Below the pieces are notes generated by a model. That model did not search any database. It was not told the origin of the DNA and saw only the letters and a list, made by a program, of their open reading frames with translations. The position numbers were made by a program, and so were the translations under genes. From the NCBI GenBank assembly GCA_965140415.1, contig OZ223209.1, positions 4,640,001 through 4,704,000 of the forward strand: a DNA stretch of 64,000 nucleotides, read 5' to 3'. Source of the DNA: Myxococcota bacterium. GTDB lineage: Bacteria; Myxococcota_A; SURF-8. Every line of letters begins with the position of its first letter. Within the stretch, counting starts at the first letter, position 1. Shown one piece after another: positions 658 through 57,091 of this stretch.

Positions 658-1632
658 TTATTCGACAATCGAAAGGCGCATCGGCGTGCTCTGCCGGTCA
701 ACCAGCACCCGTCCGTCGCGCTCCAATAAATCCAGATACGCCAGCGATTCCGATAAGGCCAGATACAAGTTGATCGGGTCCAGTTTGCCGAAAACAGCTT
801 CCGCCAATTCAAAGAGAGTCTCGTTTCCCGCCTGAATGCGCTTGATAAACAGCTTGGCGCGGCGCTCGATAAACATGCGGTTGCGTGCAATCAAGGCGGG
901 CACATCCTCGATATTCTTCCCGTGTCCCGGATAACCGACTGCGGCCTTCGTTTCGGAAAGCGTCTGTAATGAATCCAGATACTGCAACTGGCTGCGATAG
1001 CGGCGGTAGCCGTTTTCCGGGTCCAGGTAAAGCAGGGGATTGGGAGTGATGTGCGGCAGCAGCATGTCGCCGGAAAACAACTCGCCCGTTTCGGTATCCA
1101 GGTAGCAGAGGTGATCGGGACAATGTCCCGGAGTGTGCAGGCTGGTCAAGCTGCGCCCGCCGATCTCCAGGCGTTCGCCGCCGCGCAACAATCGGATCTC
1201 ATGTGGTTCGCTGTGCAGATCCGCGTTTTCGTCGCTGCGCTTGAATACCTTTCGCATTAAATCCAGCAATTCCGGCTTCGTACCGCAACGGATCAGCACG
1301 TTGAAAAGCCGCTGCAACGAATCTTCATCGCGTCGGTCGGACAATACGCAACGTTCATGCAGGAACAAGGTCGCCTTGCAGCGTTTGGAGAGCCAATAGG
1401 CCGCCCCGGCATGATCGTAGTGGCCGTGGGTGATGAGTATGTCCTGAATATCCGAAAACGTCACACCATGGCGTGTAAGTCCGGCCTCCAGGGCCTCCAG
1501 CGATTGCGGCGTATAAACCCCGGTATCCACCAGCGCCGGTTTCTCGCCCAGTATCAAATAGCTGTTGACATCCCCCACCGGATAGGGCGTAGGCAGTGGT
1601 AACTTGTGGATGATACTCGCTTTATTAATCAT
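658..1632 (-). CDS. MBL-fold metallo-hydrolase
   Basis: THGHYDHAG (HxHxDH), HTPGH, FSGD and PGHG motifs. Confidence 0.9.
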   Translation of the reverse strand: MINKASIIHKLPLPTPYPVGDVNSYLILGEKPALVDTGVYTPQSLEALEAGLTRHGVTFSDIQDILITHGHYDHAGAAYWLSKRCKATLFLHERCVLSDRRDEDSLQRLFNVLIRCGTKPELLDLMRKVFKRSDENADLHSEPHEIRLLRGGERLEIGGRSLTSLHTPGHCPDHLCYLDTETGELFSGDMLLPHITPNPLLYLDPENGYRRYRSQLQYLDSLQTLSETKAAVGYPGHGKNIEDVPALIARNRMFIERRAKLFIKRIQAGNETLFELAEAVFGKLDPINLYLALSESLAYLDLLERDGRVLVDRQSTPMRLSIVE

Positions 1633-1921
1633 GGTACAACCTTATGAACGTTTATGCGAATCCAGACGAGAACGCGTTCAGCAGTCGGTACAGATCCTAC
1701 CACGCCAAACCGATGTTGGAAGGGAAAAAAAGAGAAGTTCACCGGAATCGCGACACTTGGGAATACAAACGCGCGCAAGTCGTTCTTTCATCATGATACT
1801 GGGGAGTTTACTTGACAAAAACATGCGGCAATGACAGGATTCGCGAACTTGTGTTGAGGTGCTGTTTGACACGGATCTTCAGGTTACATTCAGAAAAACA
1901 ATCACGAATGAGGAGCGTATA

Positions 1922-3097
1922 GTGGGCGATCACGATCGATACAACGAGTTATGTTGCAGCGAACGTCAGCAACTGGGCGGCGGTATTCTGGAAATCACTC
2001 CCAAGTGTATTTTGAAAACCCACGAAGACCTGTCTCGTGTCTACACGCCCGGTGTGGCGGAACCCTGCCTTAGAATCGCCAACGACGTCACACAGGCCTA
2101 CACCTACACCATGAAAGCCAACACCGTTGCGATCATCAGCGACGGCACGGCGGTATTGGGACTGGGCGACATCGGCCCGCATGCGGCCTTACCGGTGATG
2201 GAGGGAAAAAGCCTGCTGTTCAAGACCTTCGGCAATGTCGATGCCATGCCCATCGTGGTGGACACCAAAGATGTAGATGAGTTGGAAAAGCTGGTGCGCC
2301 TGATTGCACCGACTTTCGGAGGCATCAATCTAGAGGATATCTCCGCGCCGCGCTGTGTGGATCTGATCGAGCGCTTGCAGGATCTGGACATCCCCGTGTT
2401 CCACGACGATCAGGACGGCACGGCGGTCGTTACCATCGCCGCGCTGCATAACGCGCTGAAAGTAACGGGAAAACACTTTACCGAACTGAAAGTCGTGCTT
2501 TCCGGTGCGGGAGCGGCAGCCTATGCCATCGTCAAGATGCTGAACTCCATGGACGGCTCGCCGCGTGAAATCCTGGTCTGCGATTCCAAGGGGATCATCA
2601 ACCGCAAGCGCCCACTGGCCTTCCACAAGGAATGGATTTTAAAGATGCCCGGCGTCGTGGAAGGAGAAGGCAGCCTGGCGGATGCACTGAAAGGCGCAGA
2701 CGTCTTTATCGGTGTGAGTAAGGCCGGGCTGGTCACGCGCGAGATGGTGGCTACGATGAACGCCGACCCGATCCTGTTCGCCATGGCCAACCCCGACCCG
2801 GAAATCACGCCGGAAGAAGCCTTTGCCGGAGGTGCGGCGCTGGTGGGTACCGGTCGTAGCGATTATCCCAATCAAGTCAACAACGTACTGGCTTTCCCGG
2901 GAATCTTCCGTGGGGCGCTGGACGCCCGCGCCCGCCAGATTACACCCGAAATGAAGCTGGCCGCCGCCATCGCATTGGCCGATTACGTGAAAGAACCGAC
3001 CAAGGAAAACATCCTGCCCGATCCCCTGGATAAAGCGGTCGCCATGCACGTCGCCAAGGCCGTCGCCCAAGCCTGGATCAAACAGGCGGATAAATAG
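1922..3097 (+). CDS. NAD(P)-dependent malic enzyme (short type)
   Basis: YTPGVAEPC, DGTAVLGLGDIG, LEDISAPRC, HDDQDGTA, GRSDYPNQVNN. The GTG at 1922 follows a GAGGAG RBS (the ORF track starts at 1859). Confidence 0.93.
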   Translation: MGDHDRYNELCCSERQQLGGGILEITPKCILKTHEDLSRVYTPGVAEPCLRIANDVTQAYTYTMKANTVAIISDGTAVLGLGDIGPHAALPVMEGKSLLFKTFGNVDAMPIVVDTKDVDELEKLVRLIAPTFGGINLEDISAPRCVDLIERLQDLDIPVFHDDQDGTAVVTIAALHNALKVTGKHFTELKVVLSGAGAAAYAIVKMLNSMDGSPREILVCDSKGIINRKRPLAFHKEWILKMPGVVEGEGSLADALKGADVFIGVSKAGLVTREMVATMNADPILFAMANPDPEITPEEAFAGGAALVGTGRSDYPNQVNNVLAFPGIFRGALDARARQITPEMKLAAAIALADYVKEPTKENILPDPLDKAVAMHVAKAVAQAWIKQADK

Positions 3098-46966: not shown

Positions 46967-49393
46967 CTACGGCTGCGCCTCGACCAGATACAAGCGCCAG
47001 GTGTTCAATCGTCCAACATCATTGGCCTGCGTATCTTCCACCTGCAAACGCCATTGTCCCTGGGCGCTCATTCCGGCCAGATCGAACAAACTTCCCGGAC
47101 CGCTGGGATCGAGATAAATTCCGTATACCGTAACCAGATTCGCTCCGCTGCCGGTTCCATCGAACAAGCGGACTTTGCGGTTATCCGGGGCAATCAAATC
47201 GATCAGCAGGTTACGCACCTTGGGATGCGTGATCGAAATTCCCACATACAAGGCGCCGATTTCGACATCCTGATCAATCGTGATCGTACTTGACACACCA
47301 CCCGGCTTGTTATCCGGAATCTCTATCGGGAATTCATCTTCGCTAATGAAGATCTCACCCGGCACCGTATCGGAAACCTGCACCGGTACGGCGCTGGCTT
47401 CCACGGTCGGATCCTGTGGCGTAACCACAACGTAAACCTGACGATTCGGAGCATTCTCCGCAGCGCGCACCACGCCAAGACGCGATACGCTCACCACACC
47501 GGGAGCGGTAGAATAGTAGGAACAGCGACTATTCAAGCTCATCGTCACCAAAGGGAACAACGGCTCGAACAGGCCACTCACTGTCAGCAGACGCTGCTGG
47601 GAAGGCAGAAGGTTGACGACAGCCGGGCGCACGTCATAGCCACTTAGCCCACTGATGCGCAACTCGTAGCTACCGGTCTTGTGGGTCAGCAGAGCAGCGG
47701 GAGCGGCAGAAATCTTTACCCGAACGCGGCCATCTACCGGACAGGTAAGCAACAAGCGTTCGCTTTGCTGAGTAAATCCATCATTCGCGCTTGCCAACAC
47801 CGTAGTATCGTCCTGCTCATACACGGTAATCACCGGATCCAGTGAAGAAGCCTCGGCATCGATATCGACACCCAGCAACAGAATACGGTTCTTTTCACAG
47901 GAAAGCCTGTAGTAGTCTTCATCCCCGATTTCGCGCAGACGGCCACTTGTTTGTACAGGCGCTTCCGCGATAGTCTCCGTAACACCTCCACCGGGACGGA
48001 AGGGCAATGGACCCACGACATTATTGCTGCGATCCGGATCGGGAATCGTGTAGTCGGCATCGGCCTCCAGCCATACCGACCACACATCAAGGGGCGGGTT
48101 GGGAAAACGAAAGACTGCCGTCTCTCGTTCTCCCGCAAGCAATTCACTGTATACCGCGCTGCGATAGGCAGGAGCCTGCGGCTGTTCTTCCCCATACAGG
48201 AAGGCATCCAACTGGATATTTCGTGCCGGATCAGGACCGGCATTGTATAACTCGGCTGAAATCACGCTGATATTGCTGTCGGCATCGTGCTCGATCGAAA
48301 CGTTACCGACCTGCACATCCGCAGACTGACTCTGCGCGCCACTGACTTTCAATGTGAACTGACCACCGCGATTCTCCCAGCTATCCACCACCAGGTAATA
48401 GGTAGCGGTTTCTGGTGCAGTGAAGTCCAGACTATCCGACATCGAAGCACAACACTCATCGGAACCGGTCAGGCAGCTATCCGCCGGACGTTCGCAGTCG
48501 GCAAATAAGTAGATGGCTGGATCGAAATGTTGCGTCAATGAAGTTACCGTCGCATGAATCGCCTGCCCTTGCTGCAACTGAATGCGATACACACGATCCG
48601 GGCCAAGCATGGGCACACCGGAAGTTTCCCAGCAACTGGAATCGACTTCAATTGCGTTGATGGTCTCCGTGCTATCACCCGTAACAAGCTCGTTCAATGC
48701 AATTTCGGGAGCATCGCTGCACACGGAAACACAGGCACCATCTTGACAAGTTTGCGGCGGGCGACAGATACTTTGCAGCGTGTACTGCGTACCTTCCGGA
48801 CTACAGGAAAACACATCACCCGACTGACATTGAACCTGTCCCGGCTCACAGATGATGTCGTAGCAGTTATCGATAGCGCAGATTTGTCCAACCGGACAAA
48901 TTTCGCGGGTGTACGAATACCCATCGGCATTGCAGGTCAACAGTTTGTTGGTCAGGCAGATTCTTTCTCCAGGTGTACAACTCTCTATTGGTGGCGGCTC
49001 GAAATCGATCTCGGCAAACACGTCTTCCTGATCCAGATCGCCGTCGGAAAGCTCCTCTCCGTCGTTCTGCTCGAACGCATCCACTTCCAAATCACCGTCT
49101 ACAATGCTGTCCGGCTCTTCATCCGCAAGTTCCGCATCCGGCTCCAATTCGAGCTCACCCTCGATTTCGGAGTCAACCACATCGACTTCTTCATCGCCAT
49201 CCGTAACAGGGATCACGATTTCGTCGCTGTCGGTCGCATCGAAATCGCCGTCAACGTCATCCGTTCCGTCCGAACCACAGCCGGATGCCACCAGAACCAG
49301 TAAGGCTCCTAGCAGCAGCAACCAACAGCGGTTTTGAGCCAGTCCGATTATATTTGAATGCGTTGTCATTATGCTCGTCCCGAAAATTGCCAT
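46967..49393 (-). CDS. Multidomain lipoprotein: DGD linker, Cys modules, PPC-like domains, CARDB/Ig-like, C-terminal proprotein-convertase P domain
   Basis: Lipobox ASGC. DRVY...FDPAIYL...TYYLVVD, DEDYY, IPDN...ITH...L.IDLIAP...G.W.L.V.D...D.G.L..W.L. Confidence 0.82.
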   Translation of the reverse strand: MAIFGTSIMTTHSNIIGLAQNRCWLLLLGALLVLVASGCGSDGTDDVDGDFDATDSDEIVIPVTDGDEEVDVVDSEIEGELELEPDAELADEEPDSIVDGDLEVDAFEQNDGEELSDGDLDQEDVFAEIDFEPPPIESCTPGERICLTNKLLTCNADGYSYTREICPVGQICAIDNCYDIICEPGQVQCQSGDVFSCSPEGTQYTLQSICRPPQTCQDGACVSVCSDAPEIALNELVTGDSTETINAIEVDSSCWETSGVPMLGPDRVYRIQLQQGQAIHATVTSLTQHFDPAIYLFADCERPADSCLTGSDECCASMSDSLDFTAPETATYYLVVDSWENRGGQFTLKVSGAQSQSADVQVGNVSIEHDADSNISVISAELYNAGPDPARNIQLDAFLYGEEQPQAPAYRSAVYSELLAGERETAVFRFPNPPLDVWSVWLEADADYTIPDPDRSNNVVGPLPFRPGGGVTETIAEAPVQTSGRLREIGDEDYYRLSCEKNRILLLGVDIDAEASSLDPVITVYEQDDTTVLASANDGFTQQSERLLLTCPVDGRVRVKISAAPAALLTHKTGSYELRISGLSGYDVRPAVVNLLPSQQRLLTVSGLFEPLFPLVTMSLNSRCSYYSTAPGVVSVSRLGVVRAAENAPNRQVYVVVTPQDPTVEASAVPVQVSDTVPGEIFISEDEFPIEIPDNKPGGVSSTITIDQDVEIGALYVGISITHPKVRNLLIDLIAPDNRKVRLFDGTGSGANLVTVYGIYLDPSGPGSLFDLAGMSAQGQWRLQVEDTQANDVGRLNTWRLYLVEAQP

Positions 49394-49530: not shown

Positions 49531-51690
49531 CTAGCGCTTCAACAGTGAAGAAAGAACCCCTTTTTTCTTCTTAGCATTCATTTCTTCCTGCTTACGCATT
49601 TTCAATAGTCTAACTTCACTTTGAGCGCGCGAGTGTTTCTTGTCGACCTGCAATGTTTTCAAGAACCATTCCGCAGCTTTATTGGTATCTCCAATCGCTT
49701 TATAAATCGTACCCATATAGAAATAGGCGTTCGACAGTTTCTCGTTTAATTCAATGGCTTTTTCAAGGTAACGAACCGCCTCCTGGCGAGTCACCAAATC
49801 CTGCGTGCTCATGTTGAAATGCACCCAGCCAAGTTCAGCAAAGAACTCACCTTCGTTGGGATTCAGCTTGATTGCCTCCTGCAAGTGGCGCTTGGCGGTA
49901 GTCCAATCTTTTTTCCTTGTAGCATTCTGAGCATCGAAGAAGAACTGTTCAGCGGCCAGGATTTTCGCCACTTCTTCGGTAGCATCTTCGTTTCCGCCTT
50001 CCGACATCTCTTTAATGTACTCTGATTTCTTGGTCGAATTGCTCAATGTTTCAGCAGCTTTGGAATAGGTGGTAAAGATCTGGTCCGCCAATTGCCGAAT
50101 TTCTGTAATGTCGCTATGTGCAATCGCATCCGGATGAAATTCCTTGGCGAGTTGCCGAAATTTTTCTTTAACGATGTCGGGTTTGACTTTCTGATCCACA
50201 TCCAACAGAGTAAAATAATCTTTGCCTGCCATCTCTTCTCGCAATTTATACAATCTGAGATAGTGAGCTTTTTGATCCTCATCCATTTTCTGGACGGCAA
50301 GCATCATTTCCATTTTCTGTAACTGCTCTTTACCCAGTGCTTTCGTTCTGGTCGATGTTTTGGAAACATCCTGCTCGGCTTCCTTATTCTTTTCCAATAG
50401 ATGCTTTGCATGTTGATGCATCGCACTTCGTTGTCGAATTCCTCCAGCCAGTGAATTTTCTTCTTCTTCCTCCAAATTTACTTCTTCCCAACTGGGTTGA
50501 TCGAGCGTCAAGGCCTGAATGACAATCAGATGCATGAGAAACGGCAGCATTTCCTTACGGTTCTTTATCGGGGAATCCAATAGTTCATCCAGCGTTTCGG
50601 AACCGTCCAATTGTTGGATATATCTAATTTCTTTAAGATTATAACCGCAAAGGTTCATACGCTCGGAGGCATCGTCCGCAGCCCGAACGGCAGATGTCGC
50701 ATAAGGACGCATCCATGATAACAAAGTTTCTTCTTTTACTTTGTTCATAATACCGTTGCGCAGCAACACAAATGGATGCGCGTCCAGGCGGGAATGCGGA
50801 GCCGGGACATTGGGTGAATTCTTAAAGCTGAAACTGGCACCGCGCCAATTGAAAACGGAATTCAGTTTCAAATCCAGTTGCTTTTTCAATGCTTCCGAGC
50901 GCTGGTACGGCGTGATCGCACCCAGTTCCACTAACAAATCACCATGCTTGCGCCCCGTTTTTTTGAGCAATTCAAAAGAAGAACGGAACATCTCCTCTCC
51001 GATTTCGTGCTCACGCAACATGATCTGGCCCAGACACTCTGAAATAATATTGGAAGCGATCCCGATTGGCTTGCCCTTTTCGAAGGTAATCACCTTCTTG
51101 GCTTTACCCCAGAGTATCATCAACATACCGCTCAAGCGGCGTTCGTAAAGTTGGTTAACGATAACAGGAAATGGCACTTCGTCCATTTTACCAGCAAGTG
51201 GAATCTGGCTCGGACTATAAAGGTAAAATGAGTTTTCAATAAAAGAACGTCCACGACCGGTATCACCAGGCCCTTGACTCTCTCTTTTCGGATAATCCTT
51301 TCCAAAAATCTTGCGCAACACACGAATGATACGCACCGGCGGAATCGGTTTTTCGATGTAATCAAACAACTTGTATTTGGCAATCGACTCACTGGCGTGT
51401 GTACCGCTGCGAAACACACCAGAAATCATCACGACCGGCACCTTGGAATACCCTTTGATCCATCGAAGTTTCTCGCAAACCTGGAAACCGTCCATGTTCG
51501 GCAATAAGGCATCTACAAACACCGCATCGAACACGCGTTCTTTTAAGGTTTCCACCGCAGCAAGACCGTTATATTCCGCATAGGCTTCAAAGCCTTCTTC
51601 CTGCAACAAAGCAAGAAAACCGCTGACAAGCTCCTTGTCATCATCCACCACCAGAACTTTTAACGCTTTTTGGGGGTCATCGTTGGCCAT
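49531..51690 (-). CDS. Response regulator receiver - DUF4388-like - DnaJ - TPR protein
   Basis: VLVVDD...D.LLPNMDG...KP receiver, DYFTLL...FHPD J-domain, C-terminal TPRs. Confidence 0.88.
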   Translation of the reverse strand: MANDDPQKALKVLVVDDDKELVSGFLALLQEEGFEAYAEYNGLAAVETLKERVFDAVFVDALLPNMDGFQVCEKLRWIKGYSKVPVVMISGVFRSGTHASESIAKYKLFDYIEKPIPPVRIIRVLRKIFGKDYPKRESQGPGDTGRGRSFIENSFYLYSPSQIPLAGKMDEVPFPVIVNQLYERRLSGMLMILWGKAKKVITFEKGKPIGIASNIISECLGQIMLREHEIGEEMFRSSFELLKKTGRKHGDLLVELGAITPYQRSEALKKQLDLKLNSVFNWRGASFSFKNSPNVPAPHSRLDAHPFVLLRNGIMNKVKEETLLSWMRPYATSAVRAADDASERMNLCGYNLKEIRYIQQLDGSETLDELLDSPIKNRKEMLPFLMHLIVIQALTLDQPSWEEVNLEEEEENSLAGGIRQRSAMHQHAKHLLEKNKEAEQDVSKTSTRTKALGKEQLQKMEMMLAVQKMDEDQKAHYLRLYKLREEMAGKDYFTLLDVDQKVKPDIVKEKFRQLAKEFHPDAIAHSDITEIRQLADQIFTTYSKAAETLSNSTKKSEYIKEMSEGGNEDATEEVAKILAAEQFFFDAQNATRKKDWTTAKRHLQEAIKLNPNEGEFFAELGWVHFNMSTQDLVTRQEAVRYLEKAIELNEKLSNAYFYMGTIYKAIGDTNKAAEWFLKTLQVDKKHSRAQSEVRLLKMRKQEEMNAKKKKGVLSSLLKR

Positions 51691-52087
51691 TTCAACTTGT
51701 CCTACTTATGATGCACTATTCCTAGCTATCTGAAAATAGTAACGGTTTCATATTCTTAGCGCAAGGAGAATTTCAACTTTGGTAAGAGATGTTCCCCCTT
51801 TTCCTATCGATGATGAAAATGGTTTCCTTAACAAACGTTTCGTATTTTGTTGTTGTAATTTACCTTGCCCGCTTGTTAGCGACTGATTCAGAATCCGACA
51901 TATCACATTTTCTTCCTGCTTCTCCCAAAGAAAGCCCATTTTCACTGCTCTTGTAAACTTGCTTCGCTGCGATTTAATCCTCTGATATTCGCTTGATTTT
52001 TCCCCTTCCTTTGCTTAAGATGATCGCTGACTATGCCCATTGCGCTTTCGGGAAATTCTAATCCACTTGCGGATGAAGGAAAGACAC

Positions 52088-52789
52088 ATGAGTTCGCAGA
52101 CTACGAAAAGTAAAAAGCAATCCACTCCTGCCAAGAAAACGAAGGCAGTTCCTAAAAGCAGCGCGACTAAAAAAACCAGTGCGCCCGCTAAAACCGCGAA
52201 ATCTACAAAAACGACCGCAAAAACCAAAACGGTTAAAAAAGCCGCTGATGGCATTCAAGACGCCACAATCGGCACCAATCAGGTAACATGGTCGATTAAC
52301 CCCAAAATCTATCCACTCGATGTCGTGTACCAGGCCGCTTTTGTGTTCATCGATCGTGCCTACATGCTGTTGGATGTGTCAGCAGACGGAGCCTGGCAGG
52401 TTACACTTAAAGGTAAAACCTCCTTGAAACAAAAAGATTTGACCGCGCTTCAAGGAGAATTTTTCAATGAGTTACTGAACCAAGCCGTTCGCAAGAAGAT
52501 CTCGAAGGACACGAAGAGCTTAAGAGAACTTATTTTAGCCAAGGCACTCTTTGCCGCCGCACGACCTGGTGAGTTGGATCAGATCCGAGAAAACGTCGCC
52601 GCCCCTCCCCGTCAGCAGTCCGAAGAAACCGTTCGGCCTTGGGACGAAGCAACTCAGGAAGAACAGGATGAACTGGACAAGCTGTTGAAAGAAATCGAAG
52701 AAGATTTCGCAGACGATCCGATGGGCATTGCCGTGCCATGGGATGAAAAATATGGCGAAGACGGCGAAAAGAAAAAAGAGGAGGATTAG
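52088..52789 (+). CDS. HxsD-like (His-Xaa-Ser system) protein with Lys/Thr/Ala-rich N-tail and acidic C-tail
   Basis: KIYPLDVVYQAAFVFIDRAY...GEFFNELLNQAVRKKI...RELIL.KALF resembles the TIGR03976 'LLNDYxLRE' family. ATG after AAGGA. Confidence 0.75.
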   Translation: MSSQTTKSKKQSTPAKKTKAVPKSSATKKTSAPAKTAKSTKTTAKTKTVKKAADGIQDATIGTNQVTWSINPKIYPLDVVYQAAFVFIDRAYMLLDVSADGAWQVTLKGKTSLKQKDLTALQGEFFNELLNQAVRKKISKDTKSLRELILAKALFAAARPGELDQIRENVAAPPRQQSEETVRPWDEATQEEQDELDKLLKEIEEDFADDPMGIAVPWDEKYGEDGEKKKEED

Positions 52790-52993
52790 GCAAGCCTTAT
52801 CCTAAAATCTCTTTGTTTTCGTTAATGATTCCCATTGTATCGCAGAACTGAAAAACGCCTCTCCATTGCACAGTCATCAACTTCGTGCTATCATATCGGA
52901 ATAATGAATGGTTAAAATCAGTTGTACTATATAGTATGAAAATAACCTGCGATAAAACACATTGCCAGGTTTTTTTAACGGTGTGAGGATTGA

Positions 52994-54112
52994 ATGAAGA
53001 AAGCATGGATCATTATCGCGATTTTAGCGATTGTGGCGATCATTGATATCGCTGTTCGATATTCCTCCAACCAGCCTAGCAGCGAACTCCAACCGCCTAC
53101 AGAATTTTCCAAAAATAAAAACGCAGATCAAACCAAACCACGCCCCAAGGGGCGTATCACGCGCCAGGAGTTCATGAAAACCCAGGGGAAGAAACAGGTT
53201 GTGCAGGCAAAACCGAAATGGTGCAAGTCTGCCATGCAGAATCTACTCTCTAAAAAAGGATCGGAAATCAACCGTAAGGATCTGGAATTTATCTCTCGCC
53301 TTGCCACTAAAAAAGCACGAGATTCTGCCTGGGTCTACATCAGTAACTATCTTGGTTGTCGGGCATTGGAAAATGATGACATCCGCTATTGCCGCCCGGT
53401 AAGTGGCGTCCACTTTTCAGAAACATTTCATGACTGCACCATCAATTTCAGATCCTGGCGTTTTCTGGATTTATACCTATACCGGAAAGTTGATTTGGCT
53501 GCATTTGAAACTGCCATCAAGGAATACAATGTAGACACCCAAACCTGGATGAAAACGGTGTATCAGGCTGTTCATGAAGATCGGTCTTCGGTTTGCGGCT
53601 CGTTGCCATTTGAAGAACGTTCATCGTGTACGATTTTGGTAGACACGATCAATGGACGGAATATTGAAGACAAAGTTGTGATGAATGACACCGTGAAAAT
53701 CATCCGAGAACTTTTCCAAACCCAAAACCTTAATATAATCAGTGACATCAGAAAATTGGATGGGGGCACTTACCTGGCTGACATTCTTAGCATGATTATG
53801 CTCAAACAAAGCCACTGCGAAAACATTCTGATCCGTGGGTTTGAAAACTCACTGTGTGAACCCCCACCTTTACAGATTAATCTTCCGCCACACCTACAAG
53901 ATCCATCCCAAATCCCGACCAAAAAAAATCAGAAAAATGATGGAATCGATGACTACGTAGCTGATCCAGACGATTTTAAGAATCAAGATAACGGTACACA
54001 AGAGAACCTGAACAACAGCGATCAAGCACAGCCAATGGATCTACCATCAGGACCATATCCATCTGTTCCACCTTCCCCTTCATCTCCATCGGAGAACGGT
54101 TCACCGGAGTAA
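52994..54112 (+). CDS. N-terminally anchored hypothetical protein with paired Cys and Pro-rich tail
   Basis: MKKA + hydrophobic WIIIAILAIVAII, 8 Cys, visibly more AT-rich than its neighbours. Confidence 0.75.
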   Translation: MKKAWIIIAILAIVAIIDIAVRYSSNQPSSELQPPTEFSKNKNADQTKPRPKGRITRQEFMKTQGKKQVVQAKPKWCKSAMQNLLSKKGSEINRKDLEFISRLATKKARDSAWVYISNYLGCRALENDDIRYCRPVSGVHFSETFHDCTINFRSWRFLDLYLYRKVDLAAFETAIKEYNVDTQTWMKTVYQAVHEDRSSVCGSLPFEERSSCTILVDTINGRNIEDKVVMNDTVKIIRELFQTQNLNIISDIRKLDGGTYLADILSMIMLKQSHCENILIRGFENSLCEPPPLQINLPPHLQDPSQIPTKKNQKNDGIDDYVADPDDFKNQDNGTQENLNNSDQAQPMDLPSGPYPSVPPSPSSPSENGSPE

Positions 54113-54119
54113 AAGCAGT

Positions 54120-55112
54120 ATGGCCAACCTCGGATATATTCAACTTGCCAGGCGATGCAATCAGAAGTGTGTCTTCTGTTCAAACCCTCCCAATGGACGG
54201 ATCATCAGCCTGGATGATGCCAAGCGTTTCGTCGATGACTTTATAGAACGCCAGTATCACGGCATCATCCTCACGGGAGGGGAGCCAACCCTGTTCGGTC
54301 CGATTACGGAACTGCTCAATTACGCCAGAGAGCGCGACATCCCCATGCGCATGGTCAGTAACGGCCAAAAGACTGCCGATTTCGACTATTTGAAATCGTT
54401 GGTCGATGCCGGACTGGTGCAATTGCACTTATCGATTCACAGCGTTCGCGAGAAGGTAGAGGACTACCTGACCCAAATTCCCGGCTCATTCAAGAATCAG
54501 ATGAAAAGCCTGGAAAACGCCGCTAAACTTGGTTTGAACACAGACATCAACTGTGTCATCAACAAGCTGAATGCCGATCATCTGGATGAAAATGTCAAAT
54601 GGCTGACCAATCGGTTTCCCAAGATTCATCATTTCGTGTGGAATAACTTGGACCCTTGCCTGAATGACGAAATGGACCGCTCGGTGATCGCTCGTCTCTC
54701 GGATTTCGAAATCTCGCTTTTCAAGGCCATGTATTACCTGGAACGCACCGGACGCAGTTTCCGTGTCGAGCGAGTACCACTCTGCTACATGGCCGATTAT
54801 GCTGCATTTTCTACGGAAACCCGAAAAATCATCAAAGACGAGGAGCGCATCGTTCATTTCCTGGATCAGAAAGAAACGGTACATCAAGTCAATTTCGCCC
54901 ATGGAAAATTCGATATTTGCAAAACCTGCCGATACGAACCGATCTGCGCTGGCCTGTTCATGCTTGGTAATGGTTATGATCCCAAAGAACTCTCCCCGAT
55001 CTTTTTGGATCCGAACAAGGTTGTGGAAAAAGTACTTCATCGACCCGATCCCGACCGGATTGAGCGTATCAAGCGCAAAAACAGTGACATGACCCATCCG
55101 GATCGGTCATGA
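54120..55112 (+). CDS. Radical SAM protein (HxsC-like)
   Basis: CNQKCVFC, TGGEPT, SNG, VPLCYM, CKTCRYEPICAG. Confidence 0.88.
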   Translation: MANLGYIQLARRCNQKCVFCSNPPNGRIISLDDAKRFVDDFIERQYHGIILTGGEPTLFGPITELLNYARERDIPMRMVSNGQKTADFDYLKSLVDAGLVQLHLSIHSVREKVEDYLTQIPGSFKNQMKSLENAAKLGLNTDINCVINKLNADHLDENVKWLTNRFPKIHHFVWNNLDPCLNDEMDRSVIARLSDFEISLFKAMYYLERTGRSFRVERVPLCYMADYAAFSTETRKIIKDEERIVHFLDQKETVHQVNFAHGKFDICKTCRYEPICAGLFMLGNGYDPKELSPIFLDPNKVVEKVLHRPDPDRIERIKRKNSDMTHPDRS

Positions 55113-56275
55113 CGGAAGACGTTGCGCCAGGGGGCTGGCTCCATTACTTGATTCTATTCCCAGCTCTTTATCTTGGCATCGTCACTTCTATCGAAGACAC
55201 CCGTTTCGGAAAAATCTACCGCCACCATATTCGGTTCGGCATCGTTATCGGCTTGGTCTGGTTGGCTGCTCTGGTCGTGTTTCATCTTTTCTTTCTAAAA
55301 GATTTCGGTTTCTTGTTGCAGAGCCTACCACACTGCCTTCTTGCCGCACTCATCGCGCTTGTGTTATCCGGCGGTATGTGGTGGTTCAACGTATGGTCGG
55401 CCGCGGACGCCAAGCTGTTTTCCGTTTTTACACTGCTGCTTCCCGTTCCGGTTATCATGGCGCACCATTCACCCACGCTGTTTTCACTGACGCTGATGGT
55501 AAACGTCTATACGGTGGCATTCGTATTGATCTGCGCCGATTTTATTTTACGCTTCACTTCTCGCGGCACGGGGAAGCTAGGCCTGTTCTTTCATGCAGCA
55601 TCTGCCGAAAGGCGAGATATCTTAAAAAGCGGAATTGACTATTTTCGTGAGAATGTACCAGGTTGGATTAAAACTTTCATCGGCATCGCGTTAATTCTAG
55701 TGCTCGTGCGCACACTCAGAAGAGCCGTCAGTGATGAATTGCAGCAGGTCGTAACACTAGACCCTACCCTGCTCTTTCTGGCTCTCTTCCTTGCTTTCCG
55801 TCCCCTGCATATGCTCTTTCAAATCAAAGCCGTCGCAATTGTCGCTCTGCTTGGATTTGTAACTTTCCTCGGCTACGAGTGGTACCTTGATCCTACAGGG
55901 CAACGCCTGCTCGAATCCGCCAGCGTTGGCGGTTGGGCATTGGGACTGATTCTATTCAGGCAGGTATACAGCTATTGGACAAGCCTGGTGGAACAAAGGC
56001 GAATTTCCCTGCAAGACCTGCGGGAACACCTGATTCTTGCTACCAGCACTCGCTCCGAGCTGCAAGCTCAGAATGTATTTTCAGAAGAAGAAATGAAACA
56101 GATCGGAGTTGAAGGACTCAACGCCGAACAAGTCTTACGGATTCAACAACTATACCAAGATCCGGAAGAACAGCAGCAGATTGCCATTGAAAATACAATC
56201 CCCTTTGCCCCCTTTATTTTCGGTGGTTACTTGGCCACCATCTACGTTGGAGATGTACTTTTAAAACTGCATTAG
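55109..56275 (+). CDS. A24-family (prepilin/preflagellin-type) aspartic peptidase-like membrane protein
   Basis: SIED...KI (first Asp), WSAADAKL (GxGD-like second Asp), C-terminal IPFAPFIFGG. Overlaps the rSAM stop (ATGA). Confidence 0.75.
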   Translation: MTEDVAPGGWLHYLILFPALYLGIVTSIEDTRFGKIYRHHIRFGIVIGLVWLAALVVFHLFFLKDFGFLLQSLPHCLLAALIALVLSGGMWWFNVWSAADAKLFSVFTLLLPVPVIMAHHSPTLFSLTLMVNVYTVAFVLICADFILRFTSRGTGKLGLFFHAASAERRDILKSGIDYFRENVPGWIKTFIGIALILVLVRTLRRAVSDELQQVVTLDPTLLFLALFLAFRPLHMLFQIKAVAIVALLGFVTFLGYEWYLDPTGQRLLESASVGGWALGLILFRQVYSYWTSLVEQRRISLQDLREHLILATSTRSELQAQNVFSEEEMKQIGVEGLNAEQVLRIQQLYQDPEEQQQIAIENTIPFAPFIFGGYLATIYVGDVLLKLH

Positions 56276-56297
56276 TCTTTAAGACGTTATCCTATTA

Positions 56298-56678
56298 TTA
56301 GTGCCCGCATCCGCCTCCATGCCCATGCCCGGCGCAAGTGTGCTGTGGGGTAAACAACGGCAACTCACCAGCATTGAACGCCTCAACCGCTGCACTGATA
56401 TTCACCATCGGTGCCTTGTAGACTTTAACTCCTCCCGCCAATAACTTGTTCAAAGCCCCCAGGCCGATTCCTCCAACCAAAATACCATCCACACTTTTGC
56501 CATCGATAGCATCCAGTGGACGGCACATACCATGCTCGTGATGCTGATCTTTATTCTGCAACGGTTCACATTGCAGCGTTTCCGTATCTACGATCATAAA
56601 CAGCGGTGCAGAGCCAAAATGGCCGTATACCACACTTTCCAAACCCTTGTTCAATGCTACGGGAATACACAATTTCAT
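56298..56678 (-). CDS. NifB/NifX family (dinitrogenase FeMo-cofactor-like) protein
   Basis: HFGSAPLF, GGIG.GA..KL...GVKV, His/Gly/Cys tail. Confidence 0.88.
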   Translation of the reverse strand: MKLCIPVALNKGLESVVYGHFGSAPLFMIVDTETLQCEPLQNKDQHHEHGMCRPLDAIDGKSVDGILVGGIGLGALNKLLAGGVKVYKAPMVNISAAVEAFNAGELPLFTPQHTCAGHGHGGGCGH

Positions 56679-56980
56679 CTTTCGTTCTCCTGATGTTTTA
56701 CAGGTTCACCTACAATCAACGCTTTACCGTGAACCAACGCCAAAGCTGTCTTTTTGCGAGCAGCGGTTACGATTCTCTGCACCGTCCCACGCGACACATT
56801 CATCCGTTCCCCAGCCTGCGCTTGTGTCAATCCTTCCAAATCGCAAAGGCGTAGCGCCTCTAATTCGTCAAGCGATAGAAAAAGGTGCTCTAATTGGTGC
56901 ATGGGAGTACCGGTCGGTTTAAAAGCACCTTTCGGATATGGACATTCACAAATACGCGGTTTAACGGGTCGAGCAGACAT
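56675..56980 (-). CDS. DUF134 family HTH protein
   Basis: RPVKPR, FKP.G.P, DELEALRLCDLEGLTQ..AG.RM.VSRGT.QR...AR.K. ATG after GGAGG. Confidence 0.88.
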   Translation of the reverse strand: MSARPVKPRICECPYPKGAFKPTGTPMHQLEHLFLSLDELEALRLCDLEGLTQAQAGERMNVSRGTVQRIVTAARKKTALALVHGKALIVGEPVKHQENER

Positions 56981-56996
56981 GCAACACCTCCTATTG

Positions 56997-57010
56997 TGTG
57001 CATATGCACA
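56997..57010. promoter_or_regulatory. Perfect 14-bp palindrome, candidate operator of the DUF134 operon
   Basis: TGTGCATATGCACA, about 17 nt upstream of the DUF134 start. Confidence 0.6.
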
Positions 57011-57091
57011 GTATAAAACAGAAGTCTTCCCGTCAAGGACTTTTGCCATTCTTTTAAAATCGATTTACTGGAGGTAGCTAATTGCCTACAG

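Follow-up and report, generated by a model that had tools for sequence, protein, structure and literature searches.

INTRODUCTION

The canonical His-Xaa-Ser (HXS, or Hxs) system comprises HxsD, HxsB, HxsC, and HxsA (TIGR03976 to TIGR03979) and is an anti-phage system that blocks the entry of phage DNA in E. coli (Li et al., Nat Commun 2026; PMC13128918). According to the available text of that study, the N-terminal cleavage of E. coli HxsA is non-canonical and depends on HxsB, HxsC, and HxsD, and its authors invoke unidentified host factors for this processing; no HxsA protease is named in that text, from which the terms peptidase, protease, and prepilin are absent. The same text reports that HxsC pulls down HxsD, that the LLNDYxLRE motif of HxsD, after which the HxsD model is named, was mutated, that HxsA has a peptidoglycan-binding domain and its product goes to the envelope, and that 99.7% of the surveyed HXS systems were found in Pseudomonadota (PMC13128918). 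Our literature search returned this 2026 paper as the one functional study of HXS, and it returned no paper on the HxsA2, HxsA3, HxsA4, or HxsC4 variants, nor any on a peptidase associated with Hxs or radical S-adenosylmethionine (SAM) clusters. Here we analyzed a 64,000-nucleotide stretch of a Myxococcota genome (GCA_965140415.1, contig OZ223209.1), referred to below as the window (G000:C1:4640001-4704000, G000 being the genome of the window), and four adjacent genes within it that are probably detached modules of a dispersed, expanded Hxs system of the HxsA4 type, the fourth of them a candidate leader peptidase of HxsA4.

The fourth gene is compared below to the A24 aspartic peptidases, which include PilD and TadV/CpaA in bacteria and FlaK, PibD, and EppA in archaea and whose second Asp lies in a G-x-G-D-x-K-L motif. 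Class III signal peptides consist of a short charged leader with Gly or Ala at position -1 and a hydrophobic stretch, the site being [KR]-G followed by hydrophobic residues. Dedicated leader peptidases of modified peptides are also found as the C39 peptidase domains of export ABC transporters. A preliminary description of the four genes had proposed a variant of HXS that does without HxsA and HxsB, in which radical SAM chemistry and removal of a leader at the membrane act on an exported or pilin-like protein.

RESULTS

Genes 1 and 3 are assigned to a dispersed Hxs system

The four genes, numbered 1 to 4 from left to right, encode an HxsD-like protein, a protein with eight Cys residues (the 8-Cys protein), a radical SAM enzyme, and a putative peptidase (Table 1). 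Their arrangement was as given in the preliminary description: all four are co-oriented, genes 2 and 3 are separated by 7 nt, and the stop codon of gene 3 overlaps the start codon of gene 4 as ATGA. Genes 1 and 2 are spaced 204 nt apart, and a Shine-Dalgarno-like AAGGAAAG lies upstream of gene 1. The HxsD model TIGR03976 matched residues 71 to 155 of the gene 1 product with 64.8 bits versus a cut-off of 50, bearing out the earlier identification, and a six-frame search of the genome with this model gave gene 1 as its single match (67.4 bits). The matched domain is preceded by a Lys/Ala/Thr-rich N-terminal extension and followed by an acidic C-terminal tail; by eye, it contains an L-L-N-x-x-x-R stretch related to LLNDYxLRE, and the exact motif is not present. 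The gene 3 product carries two Cys clusters, CxxxCxxC (C13, C17, and C20) and CxxC-x5-C (C267, C270, and C276). Its best NCBIfam match was the HxsC model TIGR03977, at 98.1 bits and thus far below the cut-off of 267.9, and because this cut-off was missed we call the protein HxsC-like rather than a member of HxsC.

Further Hxs genes were found at other sites. A minus-strand locus at 3.575 to 3.578 Mb, 1.1 Mb from gene 1, encodes HxsD_rel, HxsB, HxsA4, and a 317-aa radical SAM protein. The small HxsD_rel protein reached 70.5 bits (NF038315; cut-off, 41), the 134-aa precursor reached 63.8 with the HxsA4 model (NF038313; cut-off, 55), and HxsB, the sole over-cut-off HxsB of the genome, reached 558.8 to 559 bits (TIGR03978; cut-off, 370). 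The canonical HxsA model TIGR03979 gave 17.8 bits on the precursor, versus a cut-off of 121.65, and no match in the genome at E ≤ 0.001. A second HxsA4 gene at 0.964 Mb also encodes 134 aa, and its product shares the leader motif and has a long HxS array; the gene is solitary and far from any Hxs enzyme gene. These two were the only open reading frames (ORFs) of the genome with at least four HxS repeats and the only ones recovered by a six-frame scan for the HxsA4 leader motif. The window itself thus holds neither an HxS peptide nor HxsB, as the preliminary description had stated. The stand-alone pathway that it had proposed was rejected after this search, which placed an HxsD_rel-HxsB-HxsA4-radical SAM locus and a second HxsA4 in the same genome.

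The window encodes two additional radical SAM proteins at 35.4 to 38.0 kb. The 313-aa protein has the top TIGR03977 score of the genome (110 bits, below the cut-off) and is 60% identical to a radical SAM protein encoded two genes upstream of a radical SAM-peptidase pair in genome G023 (locus L040); the 620-aa protein is 37% identical over approximately 560 residues to the radical SAM protein encoded directly upstream of that pair. Since both are orthologous to the radical SAM proteins flanking the G023 pair, the parts of the system within the window exceed the four genes. Overall, Hxs parts are spread over at least four sites: 35.4 to 38.0 kb and 52.1 to 56.3 kb of the window, 3.575 to 3.578 Mb, and 0.964 Mb. 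TIGR03977 matched 40 places in the genome, none of them over the cut-off. A paralogue of gene 3 (46% identical) and several tandem sets of HxsC-like radical SAM genes were also observed, at 2933418-2934350 (-), 2054692-2057586, 4263295-4264842, and 5773873-5776042.

We compared the locus to those of 41 related genomes, which are Myxococcota by the labels of matching public records. HxsD (TIGR03976), an orthologue of gene 3 (E ≤ 1e-60), and HxsB (TIGR03978) were found in the identical 19 of the 41. By coordinates, HxsD lies next to HxsB in nine more distant genomes (G012, G015, G017, G021, G023, G028, G033, G036, and G038), and in two of these, G015 and G017, a radical SAM gene of the gene 3 type, HxsD, (HxsD_rel), and HxsB are contiguous, followed in G015 by HxsA4 and a radical SAM gene of the 317-aa type. 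Because HxsD, the radical SAM protein, and HxsB share 19 genomes and are contiguous in two, we consider the window part of a dispersed HxsA4-type system. The same co-occurrence, together with the HxsB/HxsA4 locus of the genome, makes a His-Xaa-Ser repeat precursor the likely substrate, in place of the pilin-like or exported protein initially envisaged.

The order HxsD, 8-Cys protein, radical SAM, and peptidase is kept in five of six genomes of the window's family (G000, G001, G002, G003, and G005), and G004 retains only the radical SAM-peptidase pair. Gene 1 orthologues lie upstream of the radical SAM gene in G001, G002, G003, G005, G006, and G009; in G006 and G009, HxsD, the 8-Cys protein, and the radical SAM protein are encoded together with the peptidase elsewhere, and in G008 all are separate. 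Radical SAM and peptidase genes were adjacent in 7 of 10 related loci. The pull-down of HxsD by HxsC in E. coli, as reported in the available text (PMC13128918), is consistent with the conserved linkage between genes 1 and 3, and the gene 3 product is a probable partner of the HxsD encoded by gene 1. Judged by their family matches and distribution, genes 1 and 3 are Hxs components.

Gene 4 is predicted to encode a divergent A24-type peptidase

The gene 4 product has eight strongly hydrophobic segments and one more at the C terminus. By eye, its motifs are D30 followed by basic-x-x-x-K-I, [SA][AG][AG]DAK[LM] around D100, and IPFAPF near the C terminus. Gene 4 itself had no Pfam match at E ≤ 0.1, and its only NCBIfam match was EppA, the archaeal prepilin peptidase, with 15.9 bits versus a cut-off of 450. 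In an alignment of 72 family members drawn from 80 loci (see below), the mean column identity was 19%, and D30, W91, W96, D100, A101, K102, and P112 were invariant. PF01478 (Peptidase_A24) matched 46 of these 72 members at E ≤ 0.01, the best at 7.8e-8, and other Pfam families matched no more than two members each. Five members examined singly scored 19.3 to 24.7 bits (gathering cut-off, 26.5) over profile positions 4 to 101 of 104, the match covering approximately residues 12 to 149, the stretch with both Asp residues. There were also weak matches to the archaeal A24 C-terminal domains Arc_PepC_II and Arc_PepC, and the Atlas features pointed to A24 clusters (0.94). A few public records name members FlaK, CpaA, or prepilin-peptidase-domain protein, and the majority are labeled hypothetical. 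At E ≤ 1e-5, no NCBIfam model was found for the peptidase homologue in the three homologues scanned (L109, L111, and L121).

Members are approximately 380 to 400 aa long. About 240 of these residues fall outside the A24 core, including additional hydrophobic segments and, at about residues 290 to 360, a soluble stretch. Cluster representatives matching the family numbered 2828 at E ≤ 0.001, 1922 at 1e-10, and 917 at 1e-30, mostly of 360 to 420 aa and matching end to end. The canonical PilD of the genome is encoded at 5.548 Mb; it has A24_N_bact, a PF01478 match of 80 bits, the only one in the genome over the cut-off, and a G-x-G-D-A-K-L motif. Because direct-homology searches with gene 4 failed, its A24 label derives from the family-wide sub-threshold Pfam matches, the invariant motifs, and the Atlas features. 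On this evidence gene 4 is classified as a divergent A24-type peptidase, and the earlier suggestion to that effect is upheld at the level of the family.

The peptidase family occurs with Hxs genes in several phyla

Scanning 185,579 species genomes with the pattern W[SA][AG][AG]DAK[LM][FY] gave 224 relatives, and the best 80 loci were retained, with flanks of up to 10 kb, some of them short. Their labels include Myxococcota, several Patescibacteria groups, Planctomycetes, Spirochaetes, Omnitrophota, Margulisiibacteriota, and others. At least one HxsC-like radical SAM gene was present in the flank of 68 of these 80 loci, and at least three, with a maximum of eight, in 47. A radical SAM gene lay directly upstream of the peptidase on the same strand in 53 loci, which agrees with the linkage that the preliminary description had claimed. 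Thirty-five flanks contained a gene 3 orthologue with at least 40% identity, and 19 contained HxsB, HxsD, HxsD_rel, or an HxS-repeat ORF. No radical SAM gene was present in the flanks of 12 loci, several with short flanks. In the full clusters L109, L111, and L121, HxsA4, HxsD, HxsD_rel, and HxsB, all over their cut-offs, are encoded beside the peptidase, and in L098 HxsA4 is directly upstream of it. Expanded Hxs clusters with up to eight radical SAM genes occur in Myxococcota, Patescibacteria, Omnitrophota-labeled, and other genomes, some of only 0.5 to 0.8 Mb; many of their radical SAM proteins had HxsC4 or HxsC as the best NCBIfam match, and none of those scanned reached the HxsC4 (NF038332) cut-off of 500.

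We looked at five of the peptidase-bearing genomes without such a hallmark in the flank. Four of these had HxsB over the cut-off elsewhere, and four had a match to the HxsA4 model elsewhere, two of them over the cut-off; the fifth genome is partial, at 0.5 Mb. Among 151 evenly sampled Myxococcota genomes, HxsB was found in 59 and the peptidase in 24, all of them HxsB positive (24 of 59 HxsB-positive versus 0 of 92 HxsB-negative genomes). Given this distribution, the peptidase is an optional part, seen in this sample only in Hxs-bearing genomes.

Presence of the peptidase tracks a membrane-targeting leader on the precursor

HxsA4 precursors consist of a leader, K-x-P-x-x-K-K...F-L-x-x-E-E-G-K-I-x-K-K, followed by an uncharged, hydrophobic, signal-peptide-like stretch, a linker, and a C-terminal (His-Xaa-Ser)n array. 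In 11 aligned leaders, P9, K12, K13, L19, E22, E23, and I26 were invariant. The residue after the two Glu residues was Gly in nine leaders and Ala in two, and it is followed by a basic patch and then by the hydrophobic stretch, which begins 6 to 7 residues past the Gly/Ala; the part N-terminal to it is charged.

We scored each precursor as having such a leader when the 10 residues after two acidic positions had a positive net charge and were accompanied by an uncharged run of at least 12 residues. In 22 peptidase-positive Myxococcota genomes, 26 of 27 precursors passed; the miss was a mis-anchored precursor of G000, and when its leader is read from the F-L position, it belongs to the G001 type. 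Among other phyla, 14 of the 15 precursors from peptidase-positive genomes passed, and here the miss was an antisense-frame artefact of repeat DNA. Conversely, only 1 of 20 anchored precursors from 20 peptidase-negative Myxococcota genomes passed (G012), and six more peptidase-negative genomes had precursors without such a leader and, by eye, without a long hydrophobic stretch. Taken together, 40 of 42 precursors passed in peptidase-positive genomes (41 of 41 after allowing for the two scoring artefacts) compared to 1 of 26 in peptidase-negative genomes. Left out of the scoring were G021, with a masked leader, G106, G131, the second G066 copy, a truncated L068 copy that by eye is of the positive type, and G005 and G126, which are peptidase positive and had no HxsA4 match at 1e-12. 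The presence of the peptidase tracks the membrane-targeting leader of the precursor.

Two individual precursors differ in other ways. The HxsA leader of G012 (L136) has a twin-arginine-like T-R-R-x-F-L-S-K sequence where peptidase-positive genomes have K-I-T-K-K, which hints that the modified protein may be exported by Tat in that genome. In G041 (L160), a long precursor encoded at 1249-2847 (+) combines an HxsA4-type leader and an HxS array with a C-terminal domain of approximately 330 aa without obvious repeats.

Gene 2 and other features of the window

The gene 2 product has a sole hydrophobic segment at its N terminus (residues 3 to 21), had no Pfam or NCBIfam match, and gave an uninformative top score of 0.83 versus the Atlas. 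Eight proteins could be aligned for this gene slot, all from the taxonomic order of the window's genome, and they were only 14 to 19% identical to gene 2; M1, K2, and all eight Cys residues were nonetheless invariant. Gene 2 is a real, fast-evolving accessory, whose product would most simply be a disulfide-bonded extracytoplasmic domain. It was considered and rejected as the general substrate of the peptidase: it is too narrowly distributed, being found in this order only, and has no conserved N-terminal Gly/Ala.

In the gene 1 product, the first 60 or so residues (window positions 52088-52300) are rich in Lys, Ala, Thr, and Ser, with a composition like that of histone H1; the HxsD of the model is only approximately 90 aa (90 positions) long. 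The gene at 49531-51690, divergent from gene 1, has a 38%-identical homologue at the same position in G002 (L035). Giant Cys-rich proteins like the product of 46967-49393 flank the HxsB locus (L018). On the other side, the gene tail to tail with gene 4 is followed by SecF, SecD, and YajC. A scan for promoters and terminators gave sites no more frequent than in shuffles, and Rfam had no match in window positions 51000-57000. PADLOC v2, which has no Hxs model, found the radical SAM proteins only generically similar to pVip.

Table 1. Features of the window and Hxs genes elsewhere in genome G000 (window positions unless marked as genome positions)
Feature	Position	Strand	Basis
Gene 1, HxsD family, 233 aa from ATG	52088-52789	+	TIGR03976 over cut-off
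Gene 2, membrane-anchored 8-Cys protein, 372 aa, order-specific accessory	52994-54112	+	Hydrophobic segment and 8 Cys
Gene 3, HxsC-like radical SAM, 330 aa	54120-55112	+	PF04055, 90 bits; TIGR03977 below cut-off
Gene 4, predicted divergent A24-type polytopic membrane protein, 388 aa	55109-56275	+	Invariant Asp; family-level PF01478
HxsC-like radical SAM, 313 aa	37037-37978	-	PF04055; approximately 15 kb from genes 1 to 4
Long radical SAM protein, 620 aa	35413-37275	-	PF04055
Secreted-type protein, 808 aa	46967-49393	-	Asp/Glu-rich repeats, Cys-rich modules, C-terminal proprotein-convertase P-domain
Multidomain protein, 719 aa	49531-51690	-	Response-regulator receiver, DUF4388, DnaJ, TPR
NifB/NifX-type protein and DUF134 helix-turn-helix protein	56298-57049	-	Nitro_FeMo-Co domain; DUF134
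HxsB	3576526-3577926 (genome)	-	TIGR03978 over cut-off
Second HxsA4 precursor	963744-964148 (genome)	-	Leader motif and HxS array

DISCUSSION

The data favor, with moderate confidence, a reading in which genes 1 to 4 are modules split off from an expanded Hxs system of the HxsA4 type whose genes are dispersed, and the product of gene 4 acts as the leader peptidase of HxsA4. It draws on family memberships, the split architecture, co-occurrence, synteny, invariant residues, and the covariation with the leader; from these we infer the proteolysis, its site, and the pairing of HxsC-like and HxsD proteins here. The substrates would be the two HxsA4 precursors, each of 134 aa, whose genes lie at 3.576 Mb and 0.964 Mb. 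In the cytoplasm, HxsB and several HxsC-like radical SAM enzymes, partnered by HxsD and HxsD_rel, would modify the repeats of these precursors, the gene 3 product probably working in a complex with the HxsD of gene 1, after the example of E. coli HxsC and HxsD. The hydrophobic stretch of the precursor would then insert into the inner membrane, where gene 4, as an intramembrane aspartic protease with D30 and D100 as candidate catalytic residues, would cut off the N-terminal leader on the cytoplasmic face, most likely beside the conserved Gly/Ala that comes after the Glu pair. Cleavage would free or license the mature His-rich product for the envelope, and gene 2 may serve as an order-specific accessory beside these maturation steps. 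More tentatively, such a member of the prepilin-peptidase family may have been co-opted as a leader peptidase dedicated to a radical SAM-modified protein so as to act as an export checkpoint. The N-terminal extension of HxsA4 would in that case be the handle for HxsD and the radical SAM enzymes and would hold the signal-like stretch inactive, to be cut after the conserved Gly/Ala only when modification is complete, thereby sending the His-rich product to the envelope.

Compared to canonical HXS, the Myxococcota system likewise has HxsD and HxsB over their cut-offs, an HxS-repeat precursor, and, in G000, more than one radical SAM maturase. The pairing of HxsC and HxsD seen by pull-down in E. 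coli, according to the available text (PMC13128918), is suggested in Myxococcota by the conserved linkage. Unlike the canonical system, which is a single D-B-C-A operon, the genes in G000 are dispersed, the precursor is of the HxsA4 type, the HxsC-like enzymes miss the TIGR03977 cut-off, and there are several extra radical SAM proteins, HxsD_rel, an A24-type peptidase, and, in the order of the window's genome, the 8-Cys membrane protein. The gene 4 family resembles A24 enzymes in being polytopic, in its two invariant Asp residues, the second in a D-A-K-L type motif, and in a P-F-x-P in the last helix. It differs from them in lacking the bacterial A24_N_bact domain, in falling below the Pfam cut-off, in having no pilus, Tad, or archaellum genes nearby, and in its presumed substrate, a radical SAM-modified repeat protein with a candidate site of E-E-[GA]-[KR]. 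Its proposed role, leader removal after modification and coupled to export, is the same as that of C39 domains, whereas the family is unrelated to them, being a putative intramembrane aspartic rather than cytoplasmic Cys protease without a fused transporter.

Several observations weigh against leader cleavage by gene 4. The gene 4 product scored only 7.4 bits with PF01478 (E, 8.4), and a six-frame search of the genome with this model missed it at E ≤ 10. When the family was compared by hhalign to nine Myxococcota PilD proteins, whose profile is shallow (Neff, 2.5), only 26 to 27 C-terminal P-F-x-P-F columns were aligned (probability, 12.3%/1.9%), and sequence-profile searches of the PDB gave designed membrane proteins and a ribosome-recycling factor and no A24 structure. 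The peptidase is optional, being absent from 35 of the 59 HxsB-positive Myxococcota genomes, and it lies beside no radical SAM gene in G006, G008, and G009. In G001, the gene 4 orthologue (L042:1620-2790, -) is frameshifted at approximately residue 195, through either decay or an assembly error, next to intact HxsD, 8-Cys protein, and radical SAM genes. Genomes within a lineage are not independent, and the phylum sample contains some 6 peptidase-positive and 11 peptidase-negative family-level lineages. The candidate site also departs from the pattern of class III signal peptides: acidic residues precede the Gly/Ala, a basic residue follows it, and the hydrophobic stretch is 6 to 7 residues away.

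Finally, the hydrophobic stretch of many leaders ends, by eye, in an A-x-A-like site cleavable by signal peptidase I. The signal-like part of HxsA4 could be removed by that enzyme, with gene 4 acting in the expanded Hxs system as a scaffold, tether, export device, or protease of some other site. The translational coupling of genes 3 and 4, the frequent position of a radical SAM gene directly upstream of the peptidase, which is compatible with a radical SAM-membrane complex, and the long region past the A24 core all fit such a role. We consider it unlikely: both candidate Asp residues and D-A-K are invariant in 72 sequences of such low mean identity, which argues for retained catalysis, and the covariation with a membrane-targeting leader accords with action on HxsA itself. 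Nor do we give much credence to the idea that gene 4 processes another lineage-variable secreted or membrane protein of the cluster, the link to the HxsA leader being indirect and both marking envelope-directed versions of the system. Extra unassigned genes do lie beside the peptidase in several loci, such as a 179-aa ORF between the radical SAM and peptidase genes of L109, yet no partner of that kind was common to the loci examined. HxsA4 with its conserved leader was the only small precursor-type protein recurring in peptidase loci and genomes, and in L098 it is the peptidase's immediate upstream neighbor.

It is similarly improbable that the four genes form a self-contained pathway, independent of HxsA and HxsB, with an exported or pilin-like substrate such as the 8-Cys protein. 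In its favor, the gene order is kept across most of the window's family, and the gene 2 product has a short basic N terminus, a hydrophobic stretch, and eight invariant Cys residues. However, the 8-Cys protein is limited to one order, whereas the peptidase family spans several phyla and, among the sampled genomes, is found only in HxsB-positive ones; no conserved Gly/Ala precedes the hydrophobic stretch of the 8-Cys protein; HxsD, the 8-Cys protein, and the radical SAM protein stay together apart from the peptidase in G006 and G009; and HxsD, the gene 3-type radical SAM protein, and HxsB have identical distributions. That gene 4 is an ordinary prepilin peptidase of a type IV pilus or Tad system, with the radical SAM gene as a chance neighbor, is close to refuted. 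Some records do label members CpaA or FlaK, and a PilZ gene lies near one locus and a gene for an MshEN-domain protein near another, but the genome has its own canonical PilD, a Pfam search of 47 neighboring ORFs gave no family named for a pilin, secretin, or pilus ATPase domain, and 68 of the 80 loci, from several phyla, show linkage to radical SAM genes.

Leader cleavage of HxsA4 by gene 4 is accordingly the reading that we retain. The observation made in the preliminary description is confirmed, and its interpretation is partly supported. Its radical SAM gene is Hxs-like in that its best match is HxsC, though below the cut-off, and its orthologue shares its 19 genomes with HxsB. The proposal that a leader is removed at the membrane gains support as a conjecture, and the peptidase still stands outside the canonical HXS definition. 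The possibility that the description had raised against itself, an hxsA-hxsB locus elsewhere in the genome, largely proved true as far as HxsB and HxsA4 are concerned; it does not account for the peptidase, which has no place in the canonical definition.

New here are the dispersed Myxococcota form of the system, the co-occurrence counts, the order-specific 8-Cys gene, and the covariation with the leader. Searches for a contiguous operon or for canonical HxsA will miss such systems, as Hxs parts can lie scattered across a genome. HxsB was present in 59 of 151 sampled Myxococcota genomes, as compared to the published figure of 99.7% of HXS systems in Pseudomonadota, given in the available text (PMC13128918). 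By analogy with the E. coli system, we infer that the Myxococcota system may also act against phages. The gene 4 family is a concrete candidate for the processing of the HXS effector. If this is correct, expanded Hxs clusters would encode the enzyme for a step that is unexplained in canonical anti-phage HXS, and the prepilin-peptidase family would have a new job outside pili, secretion pseudopili, and archaella.

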